Assembly: GCA_905478765.1 (NCBI GenBank)
Contig: CAJQJY010000003.1
Span: forward strand, 10,488-74,487
Length of the DNA: 64,000 nt
Direction: 5' to 3'
Origin: an uncultured Flavobacteriales bacterium
GTDB lineage: Bacteria > Bacteroidota > Bacteroidia > Flavobacteriales > BACL11
The notes beneath the pieces are model-generated. The model saw only the letters and a list, made by a program, of their open reading frames with translations. It was not told the DNA's origin and did no database searches. Positions 2,893-63,979 of this stretch are shown one piece after another (positions within the stretch are counted from its first letter, which is position 1; every line of letters begins with the position of its first letter). A program made the translations under genes and the position numbers.

Positions 2893-2900
2893 CAAATATA
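2893..2900 (-). promoter_or_regulatory. Putative -7 promoter box for ftcD
   Basis: TATATTTG on the - strand matches the Bacteroidetes sigma-A -7 consensus TAnnTTTG, 21 nt upstream of the ftcD ATG. Confidence 0.4.
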
Positions 2901-2903
2901 GCT

Positions 2904-2938
2904 GTTAGTTACTAGTTGTTAGTTGACAGTTACTAGTT
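2904..2938. repeat. Five tandem heptamers GTTAGTT ACTAGTT GTTAGTT GACAGTT ACTAGTT
   Basis: Read directly from the sequence. Exact 7-bp phase, followed by a T run. Lies in the ftcD/queE divergent intergenic region. Confidence 0.9.
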
Positions 2939-2994
2939 TTTTTTCCTTATCCGAAATAAGCACATTATCTAATTATCACATTAACAAATTAAGT

Positions 2995-3002
2995 TACTTT
3001 TG
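2995..3002 (+). promoter_or_regulatory. Putative -7 promoter box for queE
   Basis: TACTTTTG matches TAnnTTTG and lies only 4 nt (taaa) before the ATG at 3007. Confidence 0.4.
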
Positions 3003-3006
3003 TAAA

Positions 3007-3636
3007 ATGGATAAATCGACAAAATCATTAGTAGATAAAGGAGAAATGCTCCCATTAATGGAAGCTTTTTACACAGTACAAGGGGAAGGATATTTCTCAG
3101 GTACTGCAGCTTATTTTTTGCGAATTGGTGGTTGTGATGTTGGTTGCCATTGGTGTGATGTAAAAGAAAGTTGGAATGCTGATTTGCATCCTCCAACCAC
3201 CATTGCTGATATACTTAAGGGCATTGCTGAATACCCTGTGAATACAGTTGTAATTACAGGTGGGGAGCCTTTAATGTGGGACATGTCAAAACTTACTACT
3301 GCCTTAAAAAATGAAGGGTATAAGGTTCATTTAGAAACCTCTGGTGCTTATCCTTATAGTGGTGATTTTGATTGGGTGTGTTTATCTCCTAAAAAGATGC
3401 AAGCTCCTTTAGATGCAATAAAACCTCTTGCCAATGAGTTAAAAGTTATAGTGAATAATAAACATGACTTTATTTGGGCAGAGGAGCAAAGAGCTTTGCT
3501 AGATGATTGTAAGTTATATTTGCAAGCTGAGTGGAGTAAGCGTGAGCAAGTTATCCCAATGATTATTGATTTTGTAAAAGAAAATAAAGATTGGACAATA
3601 TCCTTGCAAAGCCATAAATACATGAATATACCTTAA
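3007..3636 (+). CDS. queE: 7-carboxy-7-deazaguanine synthase (radical SAM)
   Basis: Radical-SAM cluster motif CDVGCHWCD and QueE-like length. I prefer the ATG at 3007 over the track start at 2923 (TTG). The extra 28 residues are translated from the heptamer array, and a -7 box lies at 2995-3002. Confidence 0.8.
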   Translation: MDKSTKSLVDKGEMLPLMEAFYTVQGEGYFSGTAAYFLRIGGCDVGCHWCDVKESWNADLHPPTTIADILKGIAEYPVNTVVITGGEPLMWDMSKLTTALKNEGYKVHLETSGAYPYSGDFDWVCLSPKKMQAPLDAIKPLANELKVIVNNKHDFIWAEEQRALLDDCKLYLQAEWSKREQVIPMIIDFVKENKDWTISLQSHKYMNIP

Positions 3637-25485: not shown

Positions 25486-25520
25486 TTTTTAGTTATAAGT
25501 AATAGTGACAAGTAACTAGT
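25486..25520. repeat. Degenerate heptamer array (- strand: ACTAGTT ACTTGTC ACTATTA CTTATAA CTAAAAA)
   Basis: Read directly from the sequence. The first three units are ACT-phased. It abuts a near-consensus -7 box TATTTTAG (25475-25482) that lies 4 nt from the exonuclease ATG. Confidence 0.6.
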
Positions 25521-25530
25521 TTTTGAACAT

Positions 25531-25556
25531 AAAAAAAGGAAGCATTGCTTCCTTTT
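25531..25556 (-). terminator. Rho-independent terminator downstream of the E2 gene
   Basis: GGAAGC att GCTTCC hairpin flanked by an A run and a T run. On the - strand it is followed by TTTTTTT. Confidence 0.7.
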
Positions 25557-25602
25557 CTAAATTAACTTAAGAAACTATAACTAGTACGTAGAAACTATAT
25601 GG

Positions 25603-26934: not shown

Positions 26935-26973
26935 ACAAAAGTAAGGATATTTATTCCTTTTTGGAGCTGAGTT

Positions 26974-27001
26974 TTTAGTTACAGGTTGTTAGTATTGTAA
27001 C
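26974..27001. repeat. Degenerate heptamer array TTTAGTT ACAGGTT GTTAGTA TTGTAAC
   Basis: Read directly from the sequence. It shares TTAGTTAC.(A/G)GTTGTTAGT with the 2904-2938 array and ends at the recR stop codon. Confidence 0.55.
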
Positions 27002-33918: not shown

Positions 33919-33945
33919 GGTGGTTAAAAACTATTTTAGAGTAGG
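33919..33945 (+). promoter_or_regulatory. Orphan copy of the conserved GAAAAC-N-TAGAGTAGG element
   Basis: GGTGGTTAAAAACTATTTTAGAGTAGG matches 21/27 positions of the copy at 35900-35928. The next 11 nt match the 34155 copy at 9/11. No gene start follows it. Confidence 0.5.
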
Positions 33946-34133
33946 TATTTATAAACTAAGTATTATTAGTTTAAGCTGTTGCATTATCTGTAATTGCTTG
34001 TAGCAAATGTATTGATTTTACAAATTATCATCAAGGACTAACTTTTTTATTTATCGAAATAAAATATATTATTAATTTTATTACTGTTATAAAAAGTTAT
34101 TAAAAAAATAGTTGTTAAGTGTTTTTTTATTTT

Positions 34134-34141: not shown

Positions 34142-34154
34142 TTGAGAATTAAAT

Positions 34155-34184
34155 GGGTTAGCTGAAAACCATAAATAGAGTAGG
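34155..34184 (+). promoter_or_regulatory. Conserved leader element, copy B
   Basis: GGGTTAGCTGAAAACCATAAATAGAGTAGG ends exactly 20 nt before the ATG at 34205. Confidence 0.55.
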
Positions 34185-34204
34185 CATTTATACAATAAAA
34201 TAAA

Positions 34205-35254
34205 ATGAAAAAAATTCTATATTTATTAGTGTTGTTAATAATTACATCATGCGGAACTACGAAAGTAGTGCCTGTTGTTGAAGAAGTAAAGGGTTGTAAA
34301 GATAAAAATGCTATAAATTACAATTCGCAAGCTACTATTAATGATGGTAGTTGTAAATATGATAAAGTTGTTACTGATTATAATATATCAGTAAATGATT
34401 TAATGACCCTAGAAAAGGGCATGACAAAAAATGAGGTTCTAGTTGTAACAAAATTATTCCCTTATGAAATCTATCATAATGTAGATAATTGTGAAATTCA
34501 TGTTTACAATTACAGTAATCTTTTAAGAGAATTTGAAGCCGATATTGAGCATAAAAAAGCTGGGTTAAAAACAGGGGAAGATGTCTATAGTAATGAAAGA
34601 AAGCAAGTTCTTCTATATTACAGAAATGGATTATTAGATAATATTATAACTGAGCAAGCAAAATCAGCTCTTGTAAATGATATTTTGTGCTTTAATGAAA
34701 CTATATTAAGCTCATGTTCTACTGATGAAACTTATATAAAGTGCTTAGGATGTACAGATAAAGAAGCTCTTAATTATAATGCTTTAGCTAATTTAGATGA
34801 TGAATCATGTAAATATCCAATTATTAAAGGGTGTACAGATTCAGAGGCTTTAAATTACAATAAAGATGCAGTGGAAGATAATGGTAGCTGCAATTACTGT
34901 CCATGTGATTACAAACCAAACCCTGATTATGATCCTATAAGAAATTGTGGTGAAAAATGTATTCCAGAATTCGATTTCATTTCAGGATGCATGGATGAAG
35001 GAGCTATAAACTATAATCCTGAAGCAACTAAGGATGACAAATCTTGTCAGTACTGTCCTTGTGATACCGAAAACTACTATTATGTCTTAAATAAAAATAA
35101 AAATTGTGAAGGTGATCCTTGTGTTAAAGTGCAAAGGGTAAAAGAGAAAGAGTTAGCTAAAGAGAAAGATTGTTCATTATGCGATTTTATAGATCTTAAT
35201 GGTAAAATTGCTATTGAAGTAAAAACAGAGGGTATAATAACTAATAACGAATAA
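34205..35254 (+). CDS. Cys-rich repeat lipoprotein of unknown function
   Basis: Lipobox LIITSC. Four copies of a 23-aa module GC.D..A.NYN..A..D..SC.Y, a central GMTKNEV (SmpA/OmlA/BamE-like) domain, and two CPCD...NC...C segments. Confidence 0.8.
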   Translation: MKKILYLLVLLIITSCGTTKVVPVVEEVKGCKDKNAINYNSQATINDGSCKYDKVVTDYNISVNDLMTLEKGMTKNEVLVVTKLFPYEIYHNVDNCEIHVYNYSNLLREFEADIEHKKAGLKTGEDVYSNERKQVLLYYRNGLLDNIITEQAKSALVNDILCFNETILSSCSTDETYIKCLGCTDKEALNYNALANLDDESCKYPIIKGCTDSEALNYNKDAVEDNGSCNYCPCDYKPNPDYDPIRNCGEKCIPEFDFISGCMDEGAINYNPEATKDDKSCQYCPCDTENYYYVLNKNKNCEGDPCVKVQRVKEKELAKEKDCSLCDFIDLNGKIAIEVKTEGIITNNE

Positions 35255-35264
35255 AATATAAATT

Positions 35265-35899: not shown

Positions 35900-35928
35900 G
35901 GGGAAGCCGAAAACCATTTTAGAGTAGG
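35900..35928 (+). promoter_or_regulatory. Conserved leader element, copy C
   Basis: GGGGAAGCCGAAAACCATTTTAGAGTAGG ends exactly 20 nt before the ATG at 35949. Confidence 0.55.
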
Positions 35929-35948
35929 TAAACTAAAAATCATTTATT

Positions 35949-47929: not shown

Positions 47930-50519
47930 TTCCAAGCTCATAATTATAAAGCATCCCGTTTTTGATGTTTAAGATATTTCTCTTGCCATTATTATCAATG
48001 TCAGATATATTAAAGTAGCCATCAGTATCTATTGGAAAACCTTCAAGAATCAAATTAGCTTCCATTAAATACAAGCTATTTTCTGTACTAATAGTAAGTT
48101 TATCTCCAAATCCTTTTAAGAAGATTATCGCTCCATCAAGTGTAATGTTGTTTACTTGAGAATATCTCCCATCCAGAATTAAAAGTTTGTTGTTATTGGA
48201 AATATAAACATGGTTATTATGGAAAAGTATTTGGGAGTTAATATCTAGCTCAGAAATTTCAATAAGTTGAGAATTTCCATTTGTATTTCCTAGCCATAGC
48301 TTACCCTCAGTTGTAATCGCATAAAGCTCTCCTTTATCATTAATCTTAAGCTTATTAGCAAATTCATGAGCATCTTTAAAAGTTACTCTAGCTGATCCGT
48401 TTCTAGCTAATAATTGAGAAGTTGTATTCTTAGTTGCATTTAAAATAAAGTCTTTTCCGTTAACTGTAAAATGAATAGGGTTCTGAGTAATCCTATTTGT
48501 ATTTTTTGAGTATTTCCAGCCCTTTACTTTCTTTCCTTTTTTATCTAGGTTATAGATGATGTTGTCTTCTCCAACAATACAAATTCTGTAATTTCTGTTA
48601 TTGCTGTAATCAAATAATGAGTGGCCAAGCTTTGTAGTTGATGGTAATTCTTTAGGGAATCCTTCTACATTTTCGCCATTTCTATCAACTAAATATAAGT
48701 GTGTAGCCGTATTAAATAGCGCTTGGTATTTACTGTTCTTAAAAGCATCAATATAATTGATTTCTCCAAGTATTTTCCCATTAACTTGAATACTCCAAAG
48801 AGTTTCTCCGCTTGTGTTTAGTGCAAAAAGTTTATTGTTGTAATCTTGTGTTAAAACCATTTCTTCCTTTGTAAAATGATTTTTAACTACTTGAGGATTT
48901 AGCACTAAAATAGTATCAAGAACTACATACCATTCCTCTTTAATATCTTCTTTGTAATCCTCATCATAAAACAAACAAATATTGCATGTTAAAAGGTTTT
49001 TCTTTGCTGACATCTGCAAAGCAAATGCAGTGAATTTAAAAATAGAATCATTGTTAAATGCTAATTGTTTTGCATAACTATTTAAAAAACTATTCTGAAG
49101 AGTTTCAGCAGTTTTCCCAGGATTTATGTAATAATAGAAGTTTGCATCATTAGAAATGTAAGAGCTAAATTTATTGTAAGTTTTACTATTAGAAAGTGTG
49201 TTGTTAGAGCTGTAATTGTCAATAATATATTCTAGAGCAGAAGGGGAGTTCCCGAAAATGAAATAGTCGTTAATTACAGTAAAATATGGATTGTTTACTT
49301 TCAGTAAATCACCAAACAAATTTGCAGTTAAGTAATGGTCAAATAACTTATTAATTTGGTAATTATTGTACTTACTAGATTTTTGAATCATCCCTTGCAT
49401 TAAAGATGAAGTTCTGATAGATTCATTGGCTTTAAAGTAAGTAAAAGTATTTTCACTAATTAACTGTACTGATGTGTTGAATTTACCTGCTTCATCATCA
49501 ATCTCTCCAATAAGCTCATTGTAATTTACATTACAACTATCTTGTATCTTCTTGCGGTTTTTATCCCAACTCCAAAACCTATTTTGGTTTTGAAGAATCT
49601 TGTTCTTGCCATCAAATATATCTTTTGCATCAGAAAAACTTAAAGCTAAAAGCTCAGTTGTATTCTCAGGGATTATTTCAACAATATCAATATTACTGCT
49701 TTTTTGTCCGTTAAAAATATCAGAATAATTAGTAATATTACTATTTATTGAGCTGATACCATTTGCTAAGAGCACTTTGTCTTTTAGTTTAATATCAGTA
49801 GCAGTCCAGTTAGATAAATCGGTTGTAAGGTTTTTGTTTTTTGTAAAGGTATTTGTAAGCTCTATTAGATTGTTTCCATTAAAAATAAGGTTAATAGCAG
49901 CAGATGAACTTAAAGTGTTATATGCTTTAGAAAAACTATCATTAACATATAAATTGTCAGTATTTCTATTTGAAGTTCTTATGGCATCCGTAAGTAGCAT
50001 CTTAGTTGCAGAAAAAAATAAAATATCACCTAAAAATGAGTAATACATTCCAGTTTTATCTAAAAAGAAAATCTCTTGTTTGTCATATTCTGATGTGCTA
50101 TTTCCATTTCCAAATAACTGTATAATGGTCTCGTTATTTAGTGCAGTTACTCTGTTGAAAGTAGTACTGAACAGTGTTCCGCTATTATTTGCACCTACCT
50201 TATGGTAAGACACAAAAAGAGTGTTGCTTTTCAACACTTCCTGGTTTGAAGTAAAAAACTCGCTTATCTCTTTAATTTGAGTGTTGTTAAACTTGACGTG
50301 CTCAATGTAACCTAATTGCTCCCAAAGAGTTGTGAGCTCTAAGGTTCTGCTTAAATTCCTTACATCATTAATTTTTATAATTACTGAAGCATTAGTTGGA
50401 ATCACTGTAATAGGATCTTCAGAAGAATTTAGTGTTTTTTGGTAAGTATTGTACCCAATAAAAAGTATGATTCCAATCAATAAAATTGGAATAGAAATTT
50501 TCAATATTGTTTTGAACAT
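47910..50519 (-). CDS. Large membrane-anchored protein of unknown function (C-terminal beta-propeller-like region)
   Basis: 869 aa with one N-terminal TM helix. Asn/Ser-rich, with a C-terminal half of repeated ~45-aa beta-strand blocks. No catalytic motif recognised. Confidence 0.7.
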   Translation of the reverse strand: MFKTILKISIPILLIGIILFIGYNTYQKTLNSSEDPITVIPTNASVIIKINDVRNLSRTLELTTLWEQLGYIEHVKFNNTQIKEISEFFTSNQEVLKSNTLFVSYHKVGANNSGTLFSTTFNRVTALNNETIIQLFGNGNSTSEYDKQEIFFLDKTGMYYSFLGDILFFSATKMLLTDAIRTSNRNTDNLYVNDSFSKAYNTLSSSAAINLIFNGNNLIELTNTFTKNKNLTTDLSNWTATDIKLKDKVLLANGISSINSNITNYSDIFNGQKSSNIDIVEIIPENTTELLALSFSDAKDIFDGKNKILQNQNRFWSWDKNRKKIQDSCNVNYNELIGEIDDEAGKFNTSVQLISENTFTYFKANESIRTSSLMQGMIQKSSKYNNYQINKLFDHYLTANLFGDLLKVNNPYFTVINDYFIFGNSPSALEYIIDNYSSNNTLSNSKTYNKFSSYISNDANFYYYINPGKTAETLQNSFLNSYAKQLAFNNDSIFKFTAFALQMSAKKNLLTCNICLFYDEDYKEDIKEEWYVVLDTILVLNPQVVKNHFTKEEMVLTQDYNNKLFALNTSGETLWSIQVNGKILGEINYIDAFKNSKYQALFNTATHLYLVDRNGENVEGFPKELPSTTKLGHSLFDYSNNRNYRICIVGEDNIIYNLDKKGKKVKGWKYSKNTNRITQNPIHFTVNGKDFILNATKNTTSQLLARNGSARVTFKDAHEFANKLKINDKGELYAITTEGKLWLGNTNGNSQLIEISELDINSQILFHNNHVYISNNNKLLILDGRYSQVNNITLDGAIIFLKGFGDKLTISTENSLYLMEANLILEGFPIDTDGYFNISDIDNNGKRNILNIKNGMLYNYELGTSPTNK

Positions 50520-50552
50520 ATGACTTAAATGCTAAATAGCAAAATTAGTAAT

Positions 50553-51149
50553 TTATAGAGACAAACTCAGCTGATTAGGAATTAGTTGAAAACTTTTTCT
50601 GTGATGCTTAGTGCTTCCAAATTCTGCTATTGCTTTTCTGTGTTGATTTGTAGGATATCCTTTGTTGTTTTTCCAGAAGTAATTAGGGTGTTTTTTATCT
50701 AGCTCTTTCATAATATCATCACGATAGGTTTTTGCCAAAACTGATGCAGCAGCAATAGATAAATACTTCCCATCACCTTTAATGATACATTCATGATGAG
50801 TATTAGGATAAGGATTAAAACGATTTCCATCAATAATTAAAAGTTCTGGTTTTGTATTTAATTTTTCAATTGCCCTATGCATTGCTAAAAAGGAGGCATT
50901 TAATATATTTATTTTATCAATTTCCTTTGGACTTACAATTCCTACAGTGCATGAAATAGCTTCTTTTTCTATTATTGGCCTGAGTAACTCTCTTTTCTTT
51001 TCTGAAAGGACTTTACTATCGTTAAGTATATTGTTATTAAACTGCTTTGGGAGTATAACAGCAGCTGCAACTACTGGACCAGCTAAACAACCTCTACCTG
51101 CCTCATCACATCCTGCTATAACTAGCTTTGATTGATAGTGTTTTATCAT
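50553..51149 (-). CDS. rnhB: Ribonuclease HII
   Basis: 198 aa. [19 protein letters not shown] and [10 protein letters not shown] motifs. Confidence 0.95.
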
Positions 51150-51153
51150 AAAT

Positions 51154-51188
51154 TAGATGTGAGTATTAAGTATTTATTAGTTAGGTTT
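51154..51188. repeat. Degenerate heptamer array (- strand: AAACCTA ACTAATA AATACTT AATACTC ACATCTA)
   Basis: Read directly from the sequence. It ends 4 nt upstream of the rnhB ATG and shares ACATCTA and AATACTn units with the array upstream of smpB. Confidence 0.55.
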
Positions 51189-51228
51189 TGTCTATTTTCT
51201 ATTGTCAGTAAAAGGAGTGGTCTATTAT

Positions 51229-52113
51229 CTAATTTGGTGTTAGCCCTCTTTTGGGTTTTTTGTATTTTTTTACTTTTGTTTGATTTCTTATATCAACATC
51301 TTGCTCCAACCACCATTTCCCTTTTTTGTAGTTGTAGGAATTAAATGTTCCTTCAGGGATGTAGTATTCATAAAGTCCAGTTAAATCTTTACGGCTAGGC
51401 ACTAAATTGTCAAAAACTATACGTTCTTCTTTCTCATCATAATTAACACTGATTACTGTTTTGGAATCATATTGTAGTACTACTCTTTTCTGACTTTCTT
51501 TTTTTGATTTTTTAAAGATTGGAAGTCCGAATTTAATTTTGTTTTTACCAGAGAAATACATTACATCAATTATCTTTTTCGTACTGTATCCATCATGACC
51601 ATCCCATGATAGTATGGTGTAGTATTTTCTACCGCTTTTTTTGATGTAAATAATATTATAGACTAGACCTCCAAACCAAGTTTTAGCATCTAAATCTTCT
51701 TGTTCTGGGTTTCTAATATTTGCAGAATTATCTATTAAAGGAATTACTTCAAATCGTTTTCTTCTTTTGTTTTGATAATGCACTACACCATAATATTCAT
51801 AAGTACCATTGTCTTTTTTAAGGAGCCAACTAAAGATCCTAAAAGTATTATCTGAGGAGTAAACTCTACCTGTAGTTACTAAAGAGTCGAAAGGGAATTT
51901 AAAAGAATTTTCATATTGCAGTACTTCAGTTAAATTTTCAATAAATGCTGTATTTGCTGTTCTTTTTGCTTCTTCAGTATCAGCATTCATTATGGTGTGA
52001 GCCATCACTTTTAAAGTATCTTCATACTCAGCAAATAGGGTAGCATTTCCTTTTTGGGCGGATGCTGAATAGCATAAAAATACAAGAATGTTAATTAATA
52101 TTAGTTTTTTCAT
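51229..52113 (-). CDS. Secreted protein of unknown function
   Basis: 294 aa, signal peptide (CYSASAQ), Lys/Tyr rich. No motif recognised. Confidence 0.7.
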   Translation of the reverse strand: MKKLILINILVFLCYSASAQKGNATLFAEYEDTLKVMAHTIMNADTEEAKRTANTAFIENLTEVLQYENSFKFPFDSLVTTGRVYSSDNTFRIFSWLLKKDNGTYEYYGVVHYQNKRRKRFEVIPLIDNSANIRNPEQEDLDAKTWFGGLVYNIIYIKKSGRKYYTILSWDGHDGYSTKKIIDVMYFSGKNKIKFGLPIFKKSKKESQKRVVLQYDSKTVISVNYDEKEERIVFDNLVPSRKDLTGLYEYYIPEGTFNSYNYKKGKWWLEQDVDIRNQTKVKKYKKPKRGLTPN

Positions 52114-52161
52114 TTAGTGGATGGTAACAAAAAATTACTTTTGCACAAAGATAATTATTTG

Positions 52162-53166
52162 ATGAATTTACAAGCAAGAATACAGGCATTTACTCATTTA
52201 GGGGAATATTTAAAAACGGAGATACAGCAATATTCAGCAGAGAAATTGTACTCTGCAGAGGTGCTCAACCCTTGGTTTACCAAGGAAAATATTGATAAAG
52301 CCCTAAACGCTTGGCACGAGCAGTTAAAATTAGATATGTTTACGACTTGGCTGAGTCCTTATAAACTAAAGGAGGTAGCGTTCCCAAAAAAGGTACTTAT
52401 TATCATGGCAGGGAATATTCCTTTGGTTGGTTTTCATGATTTTCTTACTGTGCTTATTTCAGGACATAAAGTAGTGATTAAAATGTCAAGTACCGATAAT
52501 GTGCTTTTGAGGTTACTCATTGATAAGCTAATCAGTATTGCCCCTGAATTTAAGGAGCGTATTTCCTTTATTGATGAAGTAAAAAACAGAAAGTTTGATG
52601 CCGTAATTGCTACAGGAAGTGATAATTCTGCTAAGTATTTTGAGTATTATTTTAAAGGGGCTAAAAAGATAATCCGTAAAAACAGAAGGTCAGTTGCTGT
52701 ATTGGACGGTAGTGAATCGGATATGGAATTGCAAGGATTGGCTAATGATGTATTTGCTTATTTTGGATTAGGTTGTCGTAATGTTTCCAAGTTATTTTTA
52801 CCAAAAGGGTTTGACTTGGATAGACTGTTTAAAGCATTTTACAGCTATTCTTATATGGCAAAGCATAAAAAATATGGTAATAATTACGATTATAATAAAG
52901 CCATCTTCCTAATGGGAAATAATAATTTGATTGAAAACGGTTTTCTACTTATGAAAGAGGATAAATCCTTACTTTCACCAGTGGCTATGTTATATTATGA
53001 ATTCTATAAAGATATACATTCTTTAGAGCGGTTTTTAGAAGAAAATGCTGAACAACTTCAATGTGTTGTTTCAAAAAAGGATATTCCATTTGGAAACACT
53101 CAAAAACCTAACCTTTGGGATTATGCTGATGGGGTGGATACTGTAGAATTTTTAAGGGATATATAG
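52162..53166 (+). CDS. LuxC-family acyl-CoA reductase-like protein
   Basis: MAGNIPLVGFHDFLTVLISGHKVVIKMSS block and overall length as in flavobacterial acyl-CoA reductases. I prefer the ATG at 52162 over the GTG at 52117. Confidence 0.65.
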   Translation: MNLQARIQAFTHLGEYLKTEIQQYSAEKLYSAEVLNPWFTKENIDKALNAWHEQLKLDMFTTWLSPYKLKEVAFPKKVLIIMAGNIPLVGFHDFLTVLISGHKVVIKMSSTDNVLLRLLIDKLISIAPEFKERISFIDEVKNRKFDAVIATGSDNSAKYFEYYFKGAKKIIRKNRRSVAVLDGSESDMELQGLANDVFAYFGLGCRNVSKLFLPKGFDLDRLFKAFYSYSYMAKHKKYGNNYDYNKAIFLMGNNNLIENGFLLMKEDKSLLSPVAMLYYEFYKDIHSLERFLEENAEQLQCVVSKKDIPFGNTQKPNLWDYADGVDTVEFLRDI

Positions 53167-54627
53167 TTAATTATATTCATAAGCTCCTATGTCAGGGTTG
53201 CTTCTAGGATTTCCTTGAATGTCAGAACTAAATTCAGTTGAATTGTTGCCAGTATTAATAGCAGGAGAGTTGTCGTTTAAATGAAAGTTATTTTCGTTAG
53301 CATCAATAAATTTTGGCGATTGGTTAATTATTGAATTGATGTAATTTTCATTATCCGTATCAATTGTTGGGTCAAGCTTGATGAGACAATGGTCAAAAGT
53401 ATAATTGAATTCGCCTAGTTCCTGTTCCTGAAAACTCACTTCAGTAGACAGTGAGCCATAAATAATGCAATTAGTAAAATTGACTGCATCCAAATCCCTA
53501 ATATAAATATTTCCATCTGTACCTTCATAAAAGTTATTTAGCTGTATAGATGGCGTGTTTCTGTTGTTATAATCCCAGTAGTTAGCAAAAGTACAATGTG
53601 TAAAGTTATATGTGCCTCCAATATTGCAGGCTACCGTGTACTGTCCGCATTTGCTTACAATTGTATTAGAAGCTGCTATTTTAGCTCCCTGTCCTAAAAT
53701 GCCAATAGATGACATATTTTCTATAATAGTATTATTGATTGTTACGGTTGGGTTGCTGTTGGCTACTGAGTCGGCACGAATAGCAGTTGTTCCATTACTG
53801 ATTATTGCATAGTCAATTGTGTTATTAATGCTTCCTTGTACAAAATGTATTCCATTCCACTGTCCTGGGATATTTTCGTACCAAGAGTCTAATCGGTCAC
53901 CTCTTATAATTACCTCATTTCCTAAACTCCCATTAATTATTAGGGTTCCGTTATTTGTTGGTGTCTCTCCATTCTCACCTATTAAAAGAGGATTTCCAAC
54001 AAACATTCCAGAATTATTATGAAAATAGATTTTAGTTCCTTCTTCAATAGTTAGGGTAGCATTGGGTTCAATTACTACATATCCGTAAATAACATGGGGA
54101 AGGTCATTTGTCCAAGTAGTGTTTTCTGATATGGAGAAATACTTATAATTGATACTATCAGTTCCATCAGTAAAAATGTTGTCATAAGGTAAGTGAAAGT
54201 TCGCATTTCTTGCAGGGGATACTAGCTTAACATCTTGTTTTTTATTTCCTGTAGTAAACTCAATATTACTTGTAAGTAAAAAATCATTACTACTATTTTG
54301 GTTAGGCGTAACTTCTAAGAAAATGAAAATACTATCCTTAGCAGGAATTTCAATTGCGTTATGGTAGTTTCCTGCAACACCATCAACATTCATTCTGAAG
54401 CTACCACCACTTATTAGGTTTAAGGCTATATCAGTAAGAACAGTGAAGTTATTGCGATTATATATAGTAAGTGTTTGAGTAGGAGTTCCTATTGAATGAA
54501 AAGCAGTATCAAAAATGATGGTGTCATTTGAAAAATGCAAAGTAGCACTTTGGTTGCTTTCTAAAACATCTTTTTTACAAGCAAAAAGAATTGTTATAAC
54601 TAGTAAAAGAAGGAATAGTTTTTTCAT
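53167..54627 (-). CDS. Right-handed parallel beta-helix repeat lipoprotein
   Basis: Lipobox ILFAC. Repeated N.I....G-type PbH1 turns (NNTIIENMSSIGILGQGAKIAASNTIV...). Its start overlaps the smpB stop (TAATG). Confidence 0.7.
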   Translation of the reverse strand: MKKLFLLLLVITILFACKKDVLESNQSATLHFSNDTIIFDTAFHSIGTPTQTLTIYNRNNFTVLTDIALNLISGGSFRMNVDGVAGNYHNAIEIPAKDSIFIFLEVTPNQNSSNDFLLTSNIEFTTGNKKQDVKLVSPARNANFHLPYDNIFTDGTDSINYKYFSISENTTWTNDLPHVIYGYVVIEPNATLTIEEGTKIYFHNNSGMFVGNPLLIGENGETPTNNGTLIINGSLGNEVIIRGDRLDSWYENIPGQWNGIHFVQGSINNTIDYAIISNGTTAIRADSVANSNPTVTINNTIIENMSSIGILGQGAKIAASNTIVSKCGQYTVACNIGGTYNFTHCTFANYWDYNNRNTPSIQLNNFYEGTDGNIYIRDLDAVNFTNCIIYGSLSTEVSFQEQELGEFNYTFDHCLIKLDPTIDTDNENYINSIINQSPKFIDANENNFHLNDNSPAINTGNNSTEFSSDIQGNPRSNPDIGAYEYN

Positions 54628-55079
54628 TATCTCATATTTCTTATTCTATCCATATCTCGTTTTTGGTCTTTTTCTTTTATACTTTCTCTTTTATCGTACA
54701 CCTTTTTTCCTTTGGATAAAGCTATTTCTAGTTTTACTCTTCCTTTTTCGTTAATAAAGAGACGAATAGGAATAATAGAATTTCCTTTTTCAGTTACTTT
54801 CCCTAACATTTTGTTTAGTTCTTGTCTGTTAAGTAATAGTTTTCTTTCCCTTTTAGGCTCGTGATTAATGTAGCCACCATTAGGATATTCAGAGATATGC
54901 AAGTTTTTCACAAATAATTCATCACCATTGAAAACGCAATGTGCATCAGAAATATTGGCTTTATTGTTGCGAATAGACTTTATTTCTGTTCCTACTAGAG
55001 ATATTCCTGCAACAAATTTAGCAATAAACTCATATTCAAAGCTTGCTTTACGGTTTTTAATGTTGATTTTAACTGACAT
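54627..55079 (-). CDS. smpB: SsrA-binding protein
   Basis: 150 aa. NRKASFEYEF...GTEIKS...KLLLNRQE signature and a basic C-terminal tail. Confidence 0.95.
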   Translation of the reverse strand: MSVKINIKNRKASFEYEFIAKFVAGISLVGTEIKSIRNNKANISDAHCVFNGDELFVKNLHISEYPNGGYINHEPKRERKLLLNRQELNKMLGKVTEKGNSIIPIRLFINEKGRVKLEIALSKGKKVYDKRESIKEKDQKRDMDRIRNMR

Positions 55080-55084
55080 ATTTG

Positions 55085-55092
55085 CAAAGATA
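55085..55092 (-). promoter_or_regulatory. Putative -7 promoter box for smpB
   Basis: TATCTTTG on the - strand, 5 nt (caaat) before the ATG. Confidence 0.4.
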
Positions 55093-55125
55093 GTATTTAG
55101 ATGTTAGATATTAGAAGTTAGACAA
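55091..55125. repeat. Five TAG-phased heptamers TAGTATT TAGATGT TAGATAT TAGAAGT TAGACAA
   Basis: Read directly from the sequence with exact 7-bp phase. It overlaps the smpB -7 box at one end and the TTAGACA half-site at the other. Confidence 0.9.
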
Positions 55126-55143
55126 AAATGTCTCATGTCTAAA
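55118..55143. promoter_or_regulatory. Split copy of the TTAGACA / CATGTCTAAA metalloregulator-type site
   Basis: TTAGACA-aaaatgtct-CATGTCTAAA. The 10-mer CATGTCTAAA and the 7-mer TTAGACA are identical to the halves of the perfect palindrome at 56723-56738. Confidence 0.4.
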
Positions 55144-55159
55144 TAGTTAATGCTAAAAT

Positions 55160-56026
55160 CTATCCTAATGCTACATCAAGAACCATCATTACAATAAATC
55201 CTGCAATTAGTCCCATTGTAGCTAAATCCGTATTTCCTCCCCTTTGGCTTTCAGGGATTACTTCTTCAACTACAATAAAAATCATTGCTCCTGCTGCAAA
55301 AGACAGAGCATAAGGTAAAATAGGAAGAACTGTCATTACAATAGCAGCTCCAATTACTGCAAAAATTGGCTCAACTATTGCAGATAATTGTCCCCATTTC
55401 CATGATTTCCATCTGCTAACACCTTGTCTTCTAAGTGGCATTGAAACTGCAAATCCTTCAGGGAAATTTTGTATACCTATACCAATTGCTAGTGCAATTG
55501 CTGATCCTATTGTAAATACTGAATGTCCTTCCATTCCTAATATTTCAGGATTAGCCAATGCTCCAAATGCAACTCCAACTGCTAATCCTTCAGGAATATT
55601 ATGTAAAGCAATTGCTAGTACTAAAAGAATAGTTTTACGCCAGTTTGTTTCAACTCCCTCTGCTTCTTCTCTTTTTGCAAATATGTGTAAGTGAGGTATA
55701 ATTTTATCTAACCCAAACAAGAAAGCAGCTCCTAAAAAGAAGCCAATAGCAGGAGCAAGCCATACGGGTGAATCTGACATTCCCATTTCATTTTGCATTT
55801 CAACATAAGCAATTGATGGTGCTAAAAGCGACCAAAAACTAGCAGCAATCATAACTCCTCCAGTAAATCCTAATGAAATATCCAATGCTTTACGGTTACT
55901 TGTTTTGAAAAAGAAAACCAATGCAGCACCAAGAGCAGTTAGTCCCCAAGTAAAAAGTCCTGCATAAAGGGCTTGCAATACAGGTCCTTGTTGAACAAAC
56001 CATTTGTATAATTCGTAATTTTCCAT
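55160..56026 (-). CDS. ZIP family divalent metal transporter
   Basis: 288 aa, about 8 TM helices, HNIPEGLAVG and QNFPEGFAV signature helices. Confidence 0.85.
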   Translation of the reverse strand: MENYELYKWFVQQGPVLQALYAGLFTWGLTALGAALVFFFKTSNRKALDISLGFTGGVMIAASFWSLLAPSIAYVEMQNEMGMSDSPVWLAPAIGFFLGAAFLFGLDKIIPHLHIFAKREEAEGVETNWRKTILLVLAIALHNIPEGLAVGVAFGALANPEILGMEGHSVFTIGSAIALAIGIGIQNFPEGFAVSMPLRRQGVSRWKSWKWGQLSAIVEPIFAVIGAAIVMTVLPILPYALSFAAGAMIFIVVEEVIPESQRGGNTDLATMGLIAGFIVMMVLDVALG

Positions 56027-56028
56027 GT

Positions 56029-56685
56029 CTAATTTGTTTTAATTAAAAGGTGTTTTGCTACATCATTACTGATGTGTTGTTTGGTATTTACTATTTTGAT
56101 ACTGATTGATTGATCAAAAGGTATCTTTTCTAAAAGCTTAATTTCTGTCCCTATGCTGATATTTAACTTTGTTAAGTAATCTAAAAATGGCTTTTCATCT
56201 AATGTTACTCCCATAACCTTTCCATTTGTTCCTTCTGATAATTTATTTAAAGGTATAGTATTTGTTGTTGGGATTTTTCCATCTTTTGCAGGTATAGGCT
56301 CTCCATGGGGGTCAAATTTTGGGCAATCTAAAAAGGTATCTAATCTGTCTACAAGTTCTTCTGATTTTATGTGCTCTAATTGTTCGGCTACATCATGTAC
56401 TTCTCCCCAATCAAAGTTTAAGTTATTCACTAAAAAAGTTTCCCATAATCTATGTTTTCTTATTACTGATGTTGCAAAAGAGTTTCCTTTTTTTGTTAAT
56501 GATACACCTTTGTATTTCTTGTATTTGACAAGTTTTTTGTCTTGCAATTTCTTTAGCATATCTGATACTGATGCTGCAGTTGTTCCAATTTCTCCTGCAA
56601 TTGCATTGGTAGAAACTTTTCCATCAAAATTTAAACTAATGGATAAAATAGCTTTTAAATAATTTTCTTCTGCTAAAGTAATCAT
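56029..56685 (-). CDS. DtxR/MntR family metal-dependent transcriptional regulator
   Basis: 218 aa. N-terminal wHTH (ENYLKAI...VSTNAIAGEIGTTAASVSDMLKKL), a dimerisation/metal-binding domain (HRLWETFL...EQLEH) and a FeoA/SH3-like C-terminus. 2 nt upstream of the ZIP gene. Confidence 0.85.
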   Translation of the reverse strand: MITLAEENYLKAILSISLNFDGKVSTNAIAGEIGTTAASVSDMLKKLQDKKLVKYKKYKGVSLTKKGNSFATSVIRKHRLWETFLVNNLNFDWGEVHDVAEQLEHIKSEELVDRLDTFLDCPKFDPHGEPIPAKDGKIPTTNTIPLNKLSEGTNGKVMGVTLDEKPFLDYLTKLNISIGTEIKLLEKIPFDQSISIKIVNTKQHISNDVAKHLLIKTN

Positions 56686-56689
56686 GTGG

Positions 56690-56697
56690 CAAAAGTA
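56690..56697 (-). promoter_or_regulatory. Putative -7 promoter box for the regulator-ZIP operon
   Basis: TACTTTTG on the - strand, 4 nt (ccac) before the ATG at 56685. Confidence 0.4.
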
Positions 56698-56722
56698 ATA
56701 ATTATATTAATATAAAAAAAAG

Positions 56723-56738
56723 TTTAGACATGTCTAAA
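56723..56738. promoter_or_regulatory. Perfect 16-bp palindrome TTTAGACATGTCTAAA, candidate DtxR/MntR-family operator
   Basis: Read directly from the sequence. It lies centrally in the 99-bp divergent region between the regulator-ZIP operon and the TonB-dependent receptor. Its TTAG...CTAA ends resemble DtxR-type boxes. Confidence 0.6.
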
Positions 56739-56784
56739 AATTAAGATATTTGCCATGCTTAAATGAAATCAAAAAAACTAAAAA

Positions 56785-59082
56785 ATGAATAAAATAATTA
56801 ACCTATTAATAATTGCATTTGTCATATTTTCTTTAACAGCAAATTCGCAGACAATAAAAGGAAAAATAACATCCAAAAATGAAGTTGTACCTTTCGCAAA
56901 CATCATTATTGAAGGAACAAAATTGGGTGTTTCGACTGATGAGAATGGAAGTTATATTATTGAAAATGCACCATTAGGTCATCATCATATTATTGTATCA
57001 GCAGTTGGAATGATAACTAAGAAGTCTTATAATGTTGTTAATAAAGGAATAAATAATATTAATATTATGTTAGTAGCATCTGTATATAATTTGGATCAAG
57101 TTGTAGTTACAGGAACTAAAACATTTAAGAGAAGAACGAAATCTCCAGTAATTGTAAATGTGATGGATAGCAGACAATTAGAAAATGTTCAAGCTTGTAA
57201 TTTGGCAGAAGGTCTTAATTTTCAGCCAGGATTAAGGGTCGAGACTGATTGTCAAACTTGTAATTATACTCAATTGAGAATGAATGGATTGGCTGGGGGT
57301 TATTCTCAAATCCTTATAAACGGAAGGCCAATTTTTAGTCCTTTAACAGGGCTATATGGGATGGAGCAAATCCCTATTAATATGATTGATAGGATTGAAA
57401 TTGTAAGAGGAGGAGGTAGTTCGCTTTACGGCTCATCAGCAATAGGAGGAATAGTAAATGTAATAACTAAATTACCTACTACTAATAATTTTAGTTTTGG
57501 ATATGATTATAGTAGAATCAATAGCTCGGCTGATGATAAGGTTTTTCATGGCAATGCAACTGTTGTATCTGATAATAAAAATTCAGGAGCTACATTTTTT
57601 GTAAACAATCGTGATAGAATGTGGTACGATCATAATGGAGATAATTACTCAGAATTACCTGTTTTAAAAGACAATACTTTTGGGGCTAATTTCTTTTTCG
57701 TACCATCTAAAAATCAAAAAATAGAAGTAAATATGGGTAGTTTGCATGAGTATCGTTTTGGTGGAGAAATGATTACAGGTGCGCCACATTTTGCAATGCA
57801 ATCAGAAGAAAGAGTGCATGATGTGCTTTTAGGAAATATAGATTATCAAATTAATTTTAATGATGGTAACTCATCTCTTGTTACTTATTTAGCAGCACAA
57901 CAAACTAAGCGTGAGCATTATACTGGTATCAGACCAGAGGTTGGGTCTGCTGAAGAGCATTTGGCTAATCCTCCTTATGGAACTTCATTAAACACAACTA
58001 AGCAAGGTGGTTTTCAGTTGAATCATAAGATAAATAAGTTGTTTGGTCCAAATGTATTTACAATTGGTTCTGAGTATGTTTTTGATGATGTAATGGACGA
58101 AATCTCAGCTTATAATTATTTAATTGACCAAAAAGTAATAACTCTTGGTACTTTTGTTCAGTCTGACTGGGATTTGACAGAAAACTTTAATCTACTTTGT
58201 GGGGCAAGATTTGATAAGCATTCGTTATTAGAAAATATGGTGGTTAGTCCTAGGTTGTCATTGCTTTATAAATTAAGGAAAGAAACTCAATTTAGAATAT
58301 CATACAGTACAGGGTTCAGGGCACCACAAGCTTTTGATACTGATTTGCATATGGCATTTGCTGGGGGTGGAATTTCTCGTATTTTTTTGGCTGATGATTT
58401 GAAAGAAGAACGTTCAAAAAGTTTAAGCGCATCTATTAATTATGATAAAGCAACTGAGCATTATGTTTATGGTTTTACTTTTGAGGGTTTTTACACGTAT
58501 TTGAATTATGCATTTTATCAAGATCCATCTGGAGAAGATGAATTTGGAGAGGTTTTTACAAAAAGAAATGGAGCTGGAGCTAATGTAAAAGGTCTTACTA
58601 TGGAATTTAGAGCAAATTTAGAGCAAAAACTGCAGATAGAATCTGGTTTAACTTTGCAAAGATCATTGTACGATGAGGCGGTAAGTTATTCTGATGAGCT
58701 TGAGAGTAGAAAAGAATTTTTAAGAACTCCAAATAAGTACGGTTATGCTACTTTAACTTACTCTCCTACTAACAAATTAAGTTTTTCTGCAAATTTAGTA
58801 CATACAGGCGTTATGGATATATTGCATTTAGCTGGCGCTCCTGAGCAAACTAAGGATGAATTCATAAAATCACCTACATTTAATGTAATTGGACTAAAAG
58901 CAACTTACATACAGCAATTGAGTAGAGTAGGAACTAAATTAGCATACAGTGTTGGGATTAAGAATTTAACTAATGATTATCAGCAAAATCTTGATACTTT
59001 AAAAGACAGAGATAGTAACTTTGTTTATGGACCTAATTTACCAATAACAGTATACTTTGGATTAGTGCTAAAATCTCTTTAA
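56785..59082 (+). CDS. TonB-dependent receptor with an N-terminal CarboxypepD_reg domain
   Basis: 765 aa. Signal peptide, a carboxypeptidase-regulatory-like domain, a plug (DRIEIVRGGGSSLYGSSAIGGIVNVIT) and a 22-strand barrel ending in an aromatic-rich C-terminus. Confidence 0.9.
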   Translation: MNKIINLLIIAFVIFSLTANSQTIKGKITSKNEVVPFANIIIEGTKLGVSTDENGSYIIENAPLGHHHIIVSAVGMITKKSYNVVNKGINNINIMLVASVYNLDQVVVTGTKTFKRRTKSPVIVNVMDSRQLENVQACNLAEGLNFQPGLRVETDCQTCNYTQLRMNGLAGGYSQILINGRPIFSPLTGLYGMEQIPINMIDRIEIVRGGGSSLYGSSAIGGIVNVITKLPTTNNFSFGYDYSRINSSADDKVFHGNATVVSDNKNSGATFFVNNRDRMWYDHNGDNYSELPVLKDNTFGANFFFVPSKNQKIEVNMGSLHEYRFGGEMITGAPHFAMQSEERVHDVLLGNIDYQINFNDGNSSLVTYLAAQQTKREHYTGIRPEVGSAEEHLANPPYGTSLNTTKQGGFQLNHKINKLFGPNVFTIGSEYVFDDVMDEISAYNYLIDQKVITLGTFVQSDWDLTENFNLLCGARFDKHSLLENMVVSPRLSLLYKLRKETQFRISYSTGFRAPQAFDTDLHMAFAGGGISRIFLADDLKEERSKSLSASINYDKATEHYVYGFTFEGFYTYLNYAFYQDPSGEDEFGEVFTKRNGAGANVKGLTMEFRANLEQKLQIESGLTLQRSLYDEAVSYSDELESRKEFLRTPNKYGYATLTYSPTNKLSFSANLVHTGVMDILHLAGAPEQTKDEFIKSPTFNVIGLKATYIQQLSRVGTKLAYSVGIKNLTNDYQQNLDTLKDRDSNFVYGPNLPITVYFGLVLKSL

Positions 59083-59104
59083 TTAGTTACTTAAATATAA
59101 ATTT

Positions 59105-59131
59105 AAAAGCCACTTAATAAGTGGTTTTTTT
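59105..59131 (+). terminator. Rho-independent terminator
   Basis: CCACTT aat AAGTGG hairpin followed by T7. Confidence 0.8.
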
Positions 59132-59357
59132 ATGTAAAAATTAACTTTTGTAAACAAAGTTAGGTATAATTTGATATGAGTTTTTTGTAATTTACAGAAT
59201 TTTTAGTAAGATCAATGTATTATATTTGTTTTCAGTAATTTATAGTATTTATATGTAATGCTTGTTACGTTCTTTTATAAAGAAATCAGAACAATAATAT
59301 TAAAATATAAAAACAAATTTGTAGTTTTGCTGTTAACAATTGTAAATAGTAAAGTAA

Positions 59358-59657
59358 ATGCACGAAAGGCTCAAAAATTGGATGGGAATAGAAAGCTTAA
59401 AATCCTCAGCTTTGGCGGATAGTATTGGCGTGAATCGTGCAACAATCTCGCATATACTTTCTGGTCGAAATAAGCCAAGTATCGACTTTTTAGAAAAGCT
59501 ATTGAATGTGTATCCTAACATAAATGCCAACTGGTTAATTAGCGGAATTGGTTATATGCAGGACAATATGGATCAAAAAGAGGTACTTGTTTCAAAGAAA
59601 ATAGGCAAAGTTGTTGTGTTTTATGATGATAATTCCTTTGAAGAAGTAGGTGAGTAG
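59358..59657 (+). CDS. XRE-type helix-turn-helix protein
   Basis: 99 aa. SALADSIGVNRATISHILSGRNKPS is an HTH_XRE core. A TAGTTTTG -7 box lies 28 nt upstream. Confidence 0.8.
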   Translation: MHERLKNWMGIESLKSSALADSIGVNRATISHILSGRNKPSIDFLEKLLNVYPNINANWLISGIGYMQDNMDQKEVLVSKKIGKVVVFYDDNSFEEVGE

Positions 59658-59719
59658 TTGTTAGTTCCTATTTGTAATCTAATAACTATTAACTCATATC
59701 TTGTATCTTGTATCTATAT
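59650..59719. repeat. Ten tandem heptamers GTGAGTA GTTGTTA GTTCCTA TTTGTAA TCTAATA ACTATTA ACTCATA TCTTGTA TCTTGTA TCTATAT
   Basis: Read directly from the sequence. TA is fixed at unit positions 6-7 in 8 of 10 units. There is one exact tandem duplicate (TCTTGTA x2). Confidence 0.85.
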
Positions 59720-59723
59720 TTTT

Positions 59724-59731
59724 TACATTTG
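59724..59731 (+). promoter_or_regulatory. Putative -7 promoter box for pyrD
   Basis: TACATTTG matches TAnnTTTG, 14 nt upstream of the ATG at 59746. Confidence 0.4.
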
Positions 59732-59745
59732 CGAAAAATATATCT

Positions 59746-60774
59746 ATGTATAGAGTTTTCCGTTTTTTCTTATTCCTTTTTAACCCTGAAGCGATACACC
59801 ATATAACCTTTAAGATGATAAAAATTGCTGGGATGATTCCTGGTAAATTATGGGCTTTTCGTCTGCTGTTTAAAGTAAAGGATGCTAGATTAGAACGAGA
59901 TGTATTCGGATTAAAATTTGACAACCCTGTAGGCTTGGCAGCAGGCTTTGATAAAGATGCAAAACTGTTTGATGAATTAGCATCCTTTGGTTTTGGTTTT
60001 ATTGAAATTGGCACGGTTACTCCTTTCCCTCAAAAGGGAAATCCTAAGCCTAGGTTATTTCGCTTAAATGATGACAGTGGTCTTATCAATAGAATGGGTT
60101 TTAATAATCAAGGGATAGAAGTAGTAGTTGCTCGATTGAGAAGAAGAAAAACTAACATCATTATTGGTGGGAATATTGGGAAAAATAAAGTCACACCAAA
60201 TGAAAAGGCAGTAGATGATTATGAACTCTGCTTTGAGAAATTGTTTCCTTATGTGGATTATTTTGTGGTGAATGTAAGTTCGCCAAATACCCCAGGTTTG
60301 CGTGATTTGCAGGAGAAAGCACCCCTTACTGCTTTATTAAATAGATTACAGGAATTAAATAATGAAAAAGAATCCAGAAAACCAATCTTATTGAAAATAG
60401 CACCTGATTTAATCAATGACCAATTGGATGATATTATAGAAATTATAGCAACAACGAAAATTGATGGCGTGGTAGCAACTAACACAACAATTGATAGAAG
60501 TGGGCTTAAAACAGATACAAACAAGGTTAATGCTATCGGTAAAGGAGGTTTGAGTGGTAAGCCAGTTAGAGTAAGATCCACAGAGGTAATTAAGTACTTG
60601 GCTGATAAATCAAATAAAGCATTCCCAATTATTGGTGTAGGGGGAATACATAGTGCTGAAGACGCATTGGAAAAACTCGATGCAGGTGCAACATTATTGC
60701 AGTTGTATACGGGCTTCATTTATGAAGGACCATCACTTGTAAAAAGGATTAATAAGGCAATGTTAAAGAGATGA
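59746..60774 (+). CDS. pyrD: Dihydroorotate dehydrogenase (quinone), class 2
   Basis: N-terminal membrane-association helix, [27 protein letters not shown] and GGLSG motifs. I prefer the ATG at 59746 over the TTG at 59701, which lies inside the heptamer array. Confidence 0.9.
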
Positions 60775-62035: not shown

Positions 62036-62075
62036 TAAAAAAACTGAATCGTTTCTGGATAAAACGGTAGGCAGA

Positions 62076-63950: not shown

Positions 63951-63979
63951 ATTACATTTAACAAAAACACAAGAAAATT

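Follow-up and report, generated by a model that had tools for sequence, protein, structure and literature searches.

The ftcD-queE spacer

The 64,000-nucleotide (nt) stretch of DNA analyzed here, referred to below as the window, comes from an uncultured Flavobacteriales bacterium (contig CAJQJY010000003.1, positions 10,488 to 74,487) and carries an array of heptamers in the 135-bp spacer between the divergently transcribed genes ftcD and queE. The GC content of the window is 32%, and its intergenic DNA is poorer still. On the plus strand, positions 2904 to 2938 read GTTAGTT ACTAGTT GTTAGTT GACAGTT ACTAGTT and continue into a T run. Direct reading thus upholds the five in-phase heptamers given in a preliminary description of this DNA, along with its claims that TAG falls in three different plus-strand frames (at 2906, 2913, and 2920) and that the minus strand, which is the sense strand of ftcD, contains no TTG between 2904 and 2938. 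The distances reported there, 3 bp from the array to a −7 box and 21 nt from that box to the ftcD ATG, are also correct. Overall, the array is a real, nonrandom tandem repeat of a known and common intergenic class, and it appears to be a recent, clade-restricted filler separating two back-to-back promoters, not a conserved promoter signal.

When the units are read in the TAG register, the array comprises six heptads (TAGCTGT TAGTTAC TAGTTGT TAGTTGA CAGTTAC TAGTTTT; 2899 to 2940), the first of which overlaps the TA of the ftcD −7 box. A repeat search resolves these into two head-to-tail copies of 21 nt (2899 to 2919 and 2920 to 2940) that are 81% identical. On the minus strand, toward ftcD, the units are AACTAGT AACTGTC AACTAAC AACTAGT AACTAAC. 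Tandem Repeats Finder (TRF) reports a period of 7 with 3.9 to 4.7 copies and 71 to 75% matches. Four different units occur among the five, and their identity is low for a long simple sequence repeat (LSSR), which is defined by near-perfect units; a decayed or degenerate simple sequence repeat (SSR) is the best description of the array.

Each of the two genes is preceded by a −7 box (Table 1). Since the box was mapped at −12 to −5 in Flavobacterium psychrophilum (PMC9723704), we infer that ftcD transcription starts near 2888, which would give a 5′ untranslated region of ~17 nt and place the array at about −16 to −50. The short distance between the queE box and its ATG suggests a leaderless or near-leaderless mRNA. 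The half of the spacer outside the repeat contains a small hairpin (CTTAT..ATAAG; 2946 to 2960) and a 16-nt direct repeat (CACATTATCTAATTAT / CACATTAACAAATTAA; 2961 to 2992) that ends 2 nt before the queE −7 box, and this conserved block looks like a candidate operator for a putative regulator. In a similarity search it matched only the orthologous site, which makes a mobile element unlikely.

The view that coding sequence, terminators, and known promoter elements do not explain the array was borne out. A terminator scan found nothing in the ftcD-queE spacer, Rfam gave no family match there, and folding of the array as DNA yielded −3.5 and −3.3 kcal/mol for the two strands (z of −1.2 and −1.1), so that no structure is predicted. 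A structured element and an intrinsic terminator are rejected by these three results. A sigma-70 promoter scan is not meaningful for Bacteroidota.

Period 7 in the window

The frequency of arrays in the window exceeds that expected from shuffled sequence, according to the lag-7 autocorrelation check that had been proposed in the preliminary description. The scan covered 3.6 kb of intergenic DNA, with a cut-off of 0.64 for the lag-7 self-match and 300 dinucleotide shuffles. Four intergenic regions had a period-7 score of at least 0.64, compared with 0.58 such regions in the shuffles, none of which reached four (0/300), and no period from 4 to 12 other than 7 was enriched in the intergenic DNA of the window. 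For the ftcD-queE spacer itself, the lag-7 self-match has a P value of 0.0035. Motif counts give the same picture: the pattern AGTTN3 in four repeats with two or fewer mismatches has six matches versus 0.19 expected, and CTA in phase (at least 4/5) forms two clusters in 64 kb versus 0.05 expected, both intergenic, at ftcD and smpB.

The array had been described as the founding member of a dispersed family, and most of that family was recovered. The arrays at 25486, 51150, 55088, and 59679 are significant, but the one at 26974 to 27001 is not, and an array at 35235 had been overlooked (Table 1). The array upstream of the dnaQ-like exonuclease gene is 79% identical to the ftcD array over 38 nt, has the same orientation relative to its gene, and lies ~5 nt from an imperfect box, TATTTTAG. 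The array at 35235 to 35262 runs across a stop codon to within 2 nt of the next ATG. The nonsignificant site upstream of the E2 gene is among the best blastn-short matches of the ftcD array (78% over 32 nt; E of 0.03).

Table 1. Features of the ftcD-queE spacer and heptad arrays elsewhere in the window
Feature	Position	Strand	Description
ftcD	1177-2871	minus	TIGR02024 glutamate formimidoyltransferase fused to cyclohydrolase-like domain; ATG at 2871
ftcD sigma-A type −7 box	2893-2900	minus	TATATTTG; plus-strand letters CAAATATA
Full heptad array at ftcD	2899-2940		six TAG-register units; two 21-nt copies; encloses 2904-2938
T8/A8 run closing the ftcD array	2937-2944		1-nt length differences among allele-A relatives
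Non-repeat half of the spacer	2945-2994		nearly invariant in eight allele-A sequences
queE −7 box	2995-3002	plus	TACTTTTG; 4 nt from ATG at 3007
queE	3007-3636	plus	radical-SAM enzyme; ATG at 3007
Array upstream of dnaQ-like exonuclease gene	25486-25524	minus	AACTAGT TACTTGT CACTATT ACTTAT AACTAAA; P = 0.0085
Doubtful array by the recR stop, upstream of the E2 gene	26970-27001	minus	lag-7 P = 0.57
Array overlooked earlier	35235-35262	plus	TAATAAC TAATAAC GAATAAA ATATAAA; P < 0.0005
Weak array abutting the rnhB ATG	51150-51190	minus	AACCTAA CTAATAA ATACTTA ATACTCA CATCTAA; P = 0.014
smpB-proximal array	55088-55122	minus	GTCTAAC TTCTAAT ATCTAAC ATCTAAA; P = 0.0005; 3 nt from box TATCTTTG
pyrD-proximal array	59679-59715	plus	TAACTAT TAACTCA TATCTTG TATCTTG TATCTAT; P < 0.0005; ahead of box TACATTTG

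Orthologous spacers and turnover of the arrays

The exact FtcD protein of the window was found on marine metagenome contigs, and the nearest genomes are uncultured marine Flavobacteriales/Cryomorphaceae metagenome-assembled genomes (MAGs). Allele A of the spacer, in which this array differs by three point changes only, is present in the window and in the related sequences L001, L002, L007, L082 to L084, L086, and L087. Outside the array, the allele-A spacer changes only beside the A/T run and at the queE-proximal end. Allele B (L003, L004, L006, L085, L088 to L090, L092, L093, L095, L099, and L101) has an 87-nt spacer in which a different array replaces that of allele A. Its units are TAGTTTT TGGTTTT TAGTTTG TAGTTTT, or, toward queE, CTAAAAA CTACAAA CTAAAAA CCAAAAA; they end 2 nt from the queE box TACTTTTG, in the orientation opposite to that of allele A. 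In L091 (1351 to 1500), an allele-B array and an allele-A-like array, the latter including a 6-nt unit, form an inverted pair with one array beside each −7 box, and as DNA the spacer is predicted to fold into a single long, imperfect hairpin (−10.6 kcal/mol; z of −2.6). Relatives with at most 85% identity (L100 to L133, L008, L010, L012, and L013) have 22 nt between the boxes and no array. Apart from L091, orthologous promoters outside allele A thus have either a 22-nt gap or a different array, a lack of conservation that the preliminary description had named as evidence against its view of the array.

The sister arrays in the window also differ between relatives, including by whole units. Compared with the window, the pyrD array of L162 is short of exactly one 7-nt unit, and the smpB array has four units in the window versus three in L162 and L163. 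The smpB array is absent in L164 and L166 (85 to 87% SmpB identity), and L165 (86%) has a degenerate period-14 remnant of it. The pyrD array is absent in L164 to L166, where the spacer is ~40 nt with 17 nt from stop to box, and the rnhB spacer is wholly missing in L165. The absence of the arrays from relatives at or below 85 to 87% identity, together with the unit-size changes, suggests that they are young, clade-specific insertions. As such, they can explain the bulk of the variation in spacer length among closely related, streamlined marine Flavobacteriales.

Divergence between the window (48300 to 64000) and L162, whose SmpB is 93% identical, is mosaic. It amounts to ~1% in rnhB and the neighboring open reading frame, 3 to 5% in zupT and the TonB receptor gene, and 10 to 13% in smpB and pyrD. 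This mosaic pattern indicates frequent recombination in the population.

Period 7 across Bacteroidota

The lag-7 test was extended to the flanks of 80 ftcD loci from Bacteroidota. Period-7 regions numbered 6 in close relatives (0.97 expected) and 40 in distant Bacteroidota (7.4 expected), and period 8 came second, with 22 regions versus 4.1 expected. TRF gave a similar ranking for intergenic arrays of at least three copies in 1.2 Mb: period 7 accounts for 30 of the 69 arrays, followed by period 8 (13), period 5 (6), period 6 (4), and period 9 (3), and only five period-7 arrays were found in 1.07 Mb of coding DNA. The units are diverse (GATGTCA, TGTTCGT, CTATTTA, GAGAAGT, ACTATGG, and others). 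The arrays occupy divergent, tandem, and convergent spacers at comparable densities (0.36 to 0.73 per kb), and outside the window they are equally frequent after stop codons and in convergent spacers. The dominance of period 7 among intergenic tandem repeats is now documented across Bacteroidota, beyond the cyanobacteria, Xanthomonas, and Beggiatoaceae.

L067, L040, and L061 are labeled as Citrobacter freundii, Gammaproteobacteria, and Planctomycetaceae MAGs. Their ftcD genes are Bacteroidota-like (65 to 67% identity), and these sequences are probably mis-binned Bacteroidota contigs. L067 carries long inverted heptad arrays.

Proposed origin of the ftcD array

With moderate confidence, we interpret the array as a degenerate heptanucleotide SSR that arose by slippage or duplication and is tolerated in a promoter needing no −33 element. 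Slipped-strand mispairing or unequal duplication would have amplified a 7-nt unit with a TAGTT/AACTA core to three units, and the resulting 21-nt block would then have been copied in turn; point substitutions would since have diverged the units. The array would be one of a clade-specific set that inflates the otherwise minimal spacers of a streamlined marine Flavobacteriales genome, and it would have been inserted into what in relatives is the 22-nt gap between the queE and ftcD −7 boxes. It would now serve as the −16 to −50 DNA of the ftcD promoter, with the conserved block serving as the upstream DNA of queE. Its most likely effect would be passive: the two promoters would have moved from 22 to 94 nt apart, so that their upstream regions would no longer overlap, and a G-poor, stop-rich, unstructured strand would be presented toward ftcD.

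An insertion at this position may be tolerated because these promoters can do without a −33 TTG. The Bacteroidetes −33 element was taken to be a TTG ~17 to 23 nt upstream of TAnnTTTG on the sense strand. No TTG peak was found at any spacing upstream of 20 such boxes in the window, 58 in the clade, or 181 at distant loci. The array had been thought to stand in the place of a −33 TTG. There is indeed no TTG there, but its absence is the rule for clade and distant boxes alike. Since the element is undetectable as a positional signal, the missing TTG at ftcD is uninformative.

Heptanucleotide repeats are the overrepresented class of LSSRs in many bacteria, for which polymerase slippage has been proposed (Mrazek 2007, as cited in PMC4679880 and PMC4692102). 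Variation of heptamers in length and sequence between close relatives has been reported, as have inverted pairs (PMC4692102). As far as the LSSRs of Mrazek, Guo, and Shah (2007) are characterized in those later papers, the ftcD array resembles them in having head-to-tail 7-nt units, in the strong intergenic bias of its class, and in having the commonest period, 7. Turnover of length and sequence between close relatives is likewise common to the LSSRs and the window arrays, the unit-size changes being at the sister arrays, and the same accounts give the LSSRs no assigned function and propose slippage. It differs from the LSSRs so described in being degenerate and having few units (5 to 6), which would place it below the "long" and near-perfect criteria, and in being without copy-number variation and better conserved than synonymous sites. 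The tandem heptanucleotides of Calothrix PCC 7601, GGGAATC of Xanthomonas, and GGGGAYT of Nostoc are other members of the class (PMC4692102). These share with the window arrays a dispersed, intergenic, tandem arrangement, sometimes as inverted pairs, and variability between close species. However, the Calothrix short tandemly repeated repetitive (STRR) sequences and the Nostoc and Xanthomonas repeats are G-rich, are often long, with up to 26 units, and are capable of forming G-quadruplexes, whereas the window arrays are AT-rich, short, and predicted to be unstructured.

There is a parallel in sequence with the TAACTGA repeats, which are found in forward orientation, 1 to 43 nt ahead of the start codon, in Beggiatoaceae and Flexibacter litoralis (PMC4679880), and which also occur in cyanobacteria and, alongside other heptamer direct repeats, in five Bacteroidetes (MacGregor 2015, PMC4679880). 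Both have an AACT core and a stop codon per unit, lie 0 to 45 nt upstream of starts, occur in Bacteroidetes, and are absent from the orthologous spacers of close relatives (PMC4679880). All of the window arrays have the forward orientation, and the distance from array to start is 32 nt at ftcD, where the box lies between, and 2 to 3 nt at rnhB and 35235. However, the ftcD units (TAACTGT, CAACTAA, CAACTAG, and TAACTAA) are each one to two mismatches off TAACTGA, and at ftcD the array is placed on the upstream side of the −7 box, outside the ribosome-binding region.

Phase-variable promoter SSRs (PMC12721329) include the 7-bp repeats upstream of hmw1A and hmw2A in Haemophilus influenzae. The Haemophilus repeats are likewise 7-bp tandem units in a promoter or leader, and their unit number can change expression. 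Phase-variable contingency SSRs of this kind consist of many identical units with copy-number polymorphism, whereas the ftcD array is heterogeneous, has a constant unit number, and adjoins housekeeping genes. A phase-variable contingency SSR is ruled out by the eight allele-A sequences from metagenomes and MAGs, which have the same unit number and three point substitutions. A striking periodic array in promoter position is in this case a member of a widespread heptanucleotide class that is dispensable at orthologous promoters, a result that guards against over-reading of such arrays.

Several observations weigh against an origin as a neutral slippage product. At the ftcD array, the eight allele-A sequences have no copy-number variation, point substitutions being the only changes. 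In these sequences 3 of the 35 array sites are variable, versus 64 of 200 third codon positions (Fisher P = 0.004). Furthermore, the 90-nt bin that contains most of the spacer and the array is 4% divergent from L002, the least in 4 kb; the coding bins beside it are 12 to 18% divergent. The non-repeat half at 2945 to 2994 is at least as conserved as the array. Such low divergence points to selection acting on the block as a whole or to its very recent spread, which are not separable in a population as strongly mosaic as this one (1 to 13% between neighboring genes, window versus L162). A recombination tract behind the low divergence from L002 is unlikely, as it would have to coincide with the spacer. 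In the ftcD, dnaQ-like, and E2 arrays the odd units come in the same order (blastn-short E of 0.03 each), and the three could be copies of one element rather than products of independent slippage, although low complexity inflates such scores and makes the shared order weak evidence. On the sense strand of the gene that follows it, each window array has the form (A)ACTAnn or CTAAnn, and array orientation flips with the promoter in allele B. Finally, the preference of slippage for 7 nt is a published proposal rather than an established mechanism.

A strand polarity is also apparent elsewhere in Bacteroidota. Among 42 intergenic arrays of period 7 or 8, C exceeds G on the strand toward the nearest gene in 32 and G exceeds C in 7 (P = 7e-5). 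Arrays that follow stop codons divide 22:3, versus a background near 45:45, and are G-rich on the mRNA strand. Hairpin arms do not account for the polarity, since a significant inverted partner exists for only ~5 of 44 arrays. Polarity relative to the nearest gene is apparently unreported, and it is the only part of these results that a specialist might not expect. Along with the conservation of the array above third codon positions, the excess of C over G remains unexplained if the arrays are neutral microsatellites. If the polarity reflects function, it would bear on a long-standing question, namely, why heptamer repeats accumulate in bacteria.

Alternative explanations

The array could instead be an upstream promoter module that is bound by an activator, a sigma-accessory factor, or RNA polymerase and that replaces the −33 element, although we consider this unlikely. 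Such a module would account for the position of the arrays, which end 2 to 6 nt from a TAnnTTTG box at ftcD, smpB, pyrD, and allele-B queE and stand similarly close to the imperfect box of the dnaQ-like gene. It would also account for an orientation that follows the adjacent promoter, with one array per promoter in L091, and for the conservation of the ftcD array above third codon positions. By inspection, the allele-B units next to the promoter are less variable than those farther away. However, there is no room for a module in the orthologues at or below 85% identity, which have only 22 nt between the ftcD and queE boxes or, at pyrD, 17 nt from stop to box. The units differ between loci (AACTAGT, TCTAAC, TATCTTG, and TAATAAC), unit-size indels are tolerated, and similar arrays elsewhere follow stops or lie in convergent spacers. 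Since a minimal spacer forces any insertion to lie beside a box, the abutment of array and box carries little information. The dedicated promoter element of the preliminary description is not supported by the same comparison: relatives at or below 85% identity lack the array at their ftcD promoters, and in sister lineages a different array of opposite orientation takes its place.

The geometry of the array also argues against a bound module. The heptamers recognized by Streptomyces antibiotic regulatory proteins (SARPs) are spaced 11 bp apart, on the same helix face, and are conserved in sequence. Streptomyces SARP sites, so far as PMC5930380 sets them out, are similar to the module proposed earlier in having heptamer direct repeats upstream of a −10-like box with no −35 element, and they indicate that such repeats can replace a −35 element. 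In contrast, the units in the window are contiguous at period 7 and differ between loci, and a contiguous 7-bp arrangement would place successive sites 240 degrees apart on the helix. An activator- or iteron-like binding array would be expected to have a spacing of ~10.5 bp and not 7 bp, with units that do not differ between loci. A curved UP-like element or binding on one face, which had also been suggested, is not supported: because a period of 7 bp does not keep step with the 10.5-bp helical repeat, neither an A-tract-type planar bend nor same-face binding would be expected.

A polar element acting at the RNA level is a similarly doubtful alternative. Here the strand facing the gene is G-poor, with C exceeding G, is predicted to be unstructured, and has stops in all frames. 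A transcript heading for the gene, whether by read-through from upstream or as antisense from downstream, would then be untranslated and a good substrate for Rho or for a single-stranded RNA (ssRNA)-binding protein, or would act as a TAACTGA-like insulator or posttranscriptional signal. The excess of C over G toward the nearest gene and the 22:3 split after stop codons are consistent with such a role, as are the co-directional setting of six of the seven window arrays, where read-through could reach them, and the direct abutment of two arrays (rnhB and 35235) on an ATG. Two of the units differ from TAACTGA by a single mismatch (TAACTGT and TAACTAA). However, the ftcD array itself is in a divergent spacer upstream of a −7 box, with no known transcript crossing it, and the window arrays are short. 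Rho prefers YC dimers, but the C residues of the ftcD array are mostly in AC. The polarity could instead stem from G being avoided upstream of starts in general (57% versus 36% background).

A further proposal, quite unlikely in our estimation, is that the heptad arrays of Bacteroidota spacers could be polar insulators rather than neutral microsatellites, at which loading of or termination by Rho-type or ssRNA/single-stranded DNA-binding proteins would protect compactly packed genes and promoters against read-through and antisense transcription. If so, the ftcD, allele-B, and L091 arrays would be insulators, one per promoter, and both the orientation of the arrays and their conservation above synonymous sites would be explained. 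The insulator suggested in the preliminary description was of another kind, based on stop codons in three frames between divergent genes, and it did not hold up. Both strands are closed in this way in 6% of all 35-nt intergenic windows, and one strand is closed in 21%. With a TAG- or TAA-bearing unit, a period of 7 makes three-frame closure automatic.

It is very unlikely that the array is the surviving arm of an inverted repeat, i.e., half of a heptad pair able to form a cruciform or hairpin between the divergent promoters. Both arms and their predicted hairpin are present in L091, and inverted heptad pairs are found in L016, L067, and L073, as well as in Xanthomonas (PMC4692102). However, the ftcD array has no inverted partner in the window (best inverted match score of 6; z of −0.4), where the repeat search likewise gave no inverted repeat, few of the Bacteroidota arrays have one, and L091 may be a recombinant of alleles A and B. 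Chance low-complexity sequence, which the low GC content, the AT-richer intergenic DNA, and the nonsignificant site at 26974 to 27001 might suggest, can be dismissed with near certainty, as it is rejected by shuffle tests at several levels and by retention of the array in the nine independent assemblies with allele A (L001, L002, L007, L082 to L084, L086, L087, and the window).

Other features of the window

Boxes very close to start codons are not confined to queE. Five of the 20 TAnnTTTG boxes in the window are only 4 to 5 nt from an ATG, namely, those of the genes starting at 3007 (plus strand), 27607, 31692, 55079, and 56685 (all minus strand), and the genes concerned are queE, recR, smpB, and two others. 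This spacing implies leaderless or near-leaderless mRNAs, in a share that would be above that of F. psychrophilum, where 5.5% are leaderless (PMC9723704).

A canonical intrinsic terminator (AAGGAAGC AAT GCTTCCTT T7) follows the E2 gene at 25545 to 25565, with heptad sequence of the TAGTT/AACTA type on both sides. We also found a DUF805b RNA motif above the Rfam threshold at 34152 to 34186. Its TTTAGAGTAGG core recurs at 35905 to 35935, after GAAAACC, and at 33930 to 33960, after AAAAAC, in both cases below the gathering score. A cobalamin riboswitch (91 bits) is located at 61866 to 62048, upstream of a gene encoding a TonB-dependent receptor (62076 to 63950).

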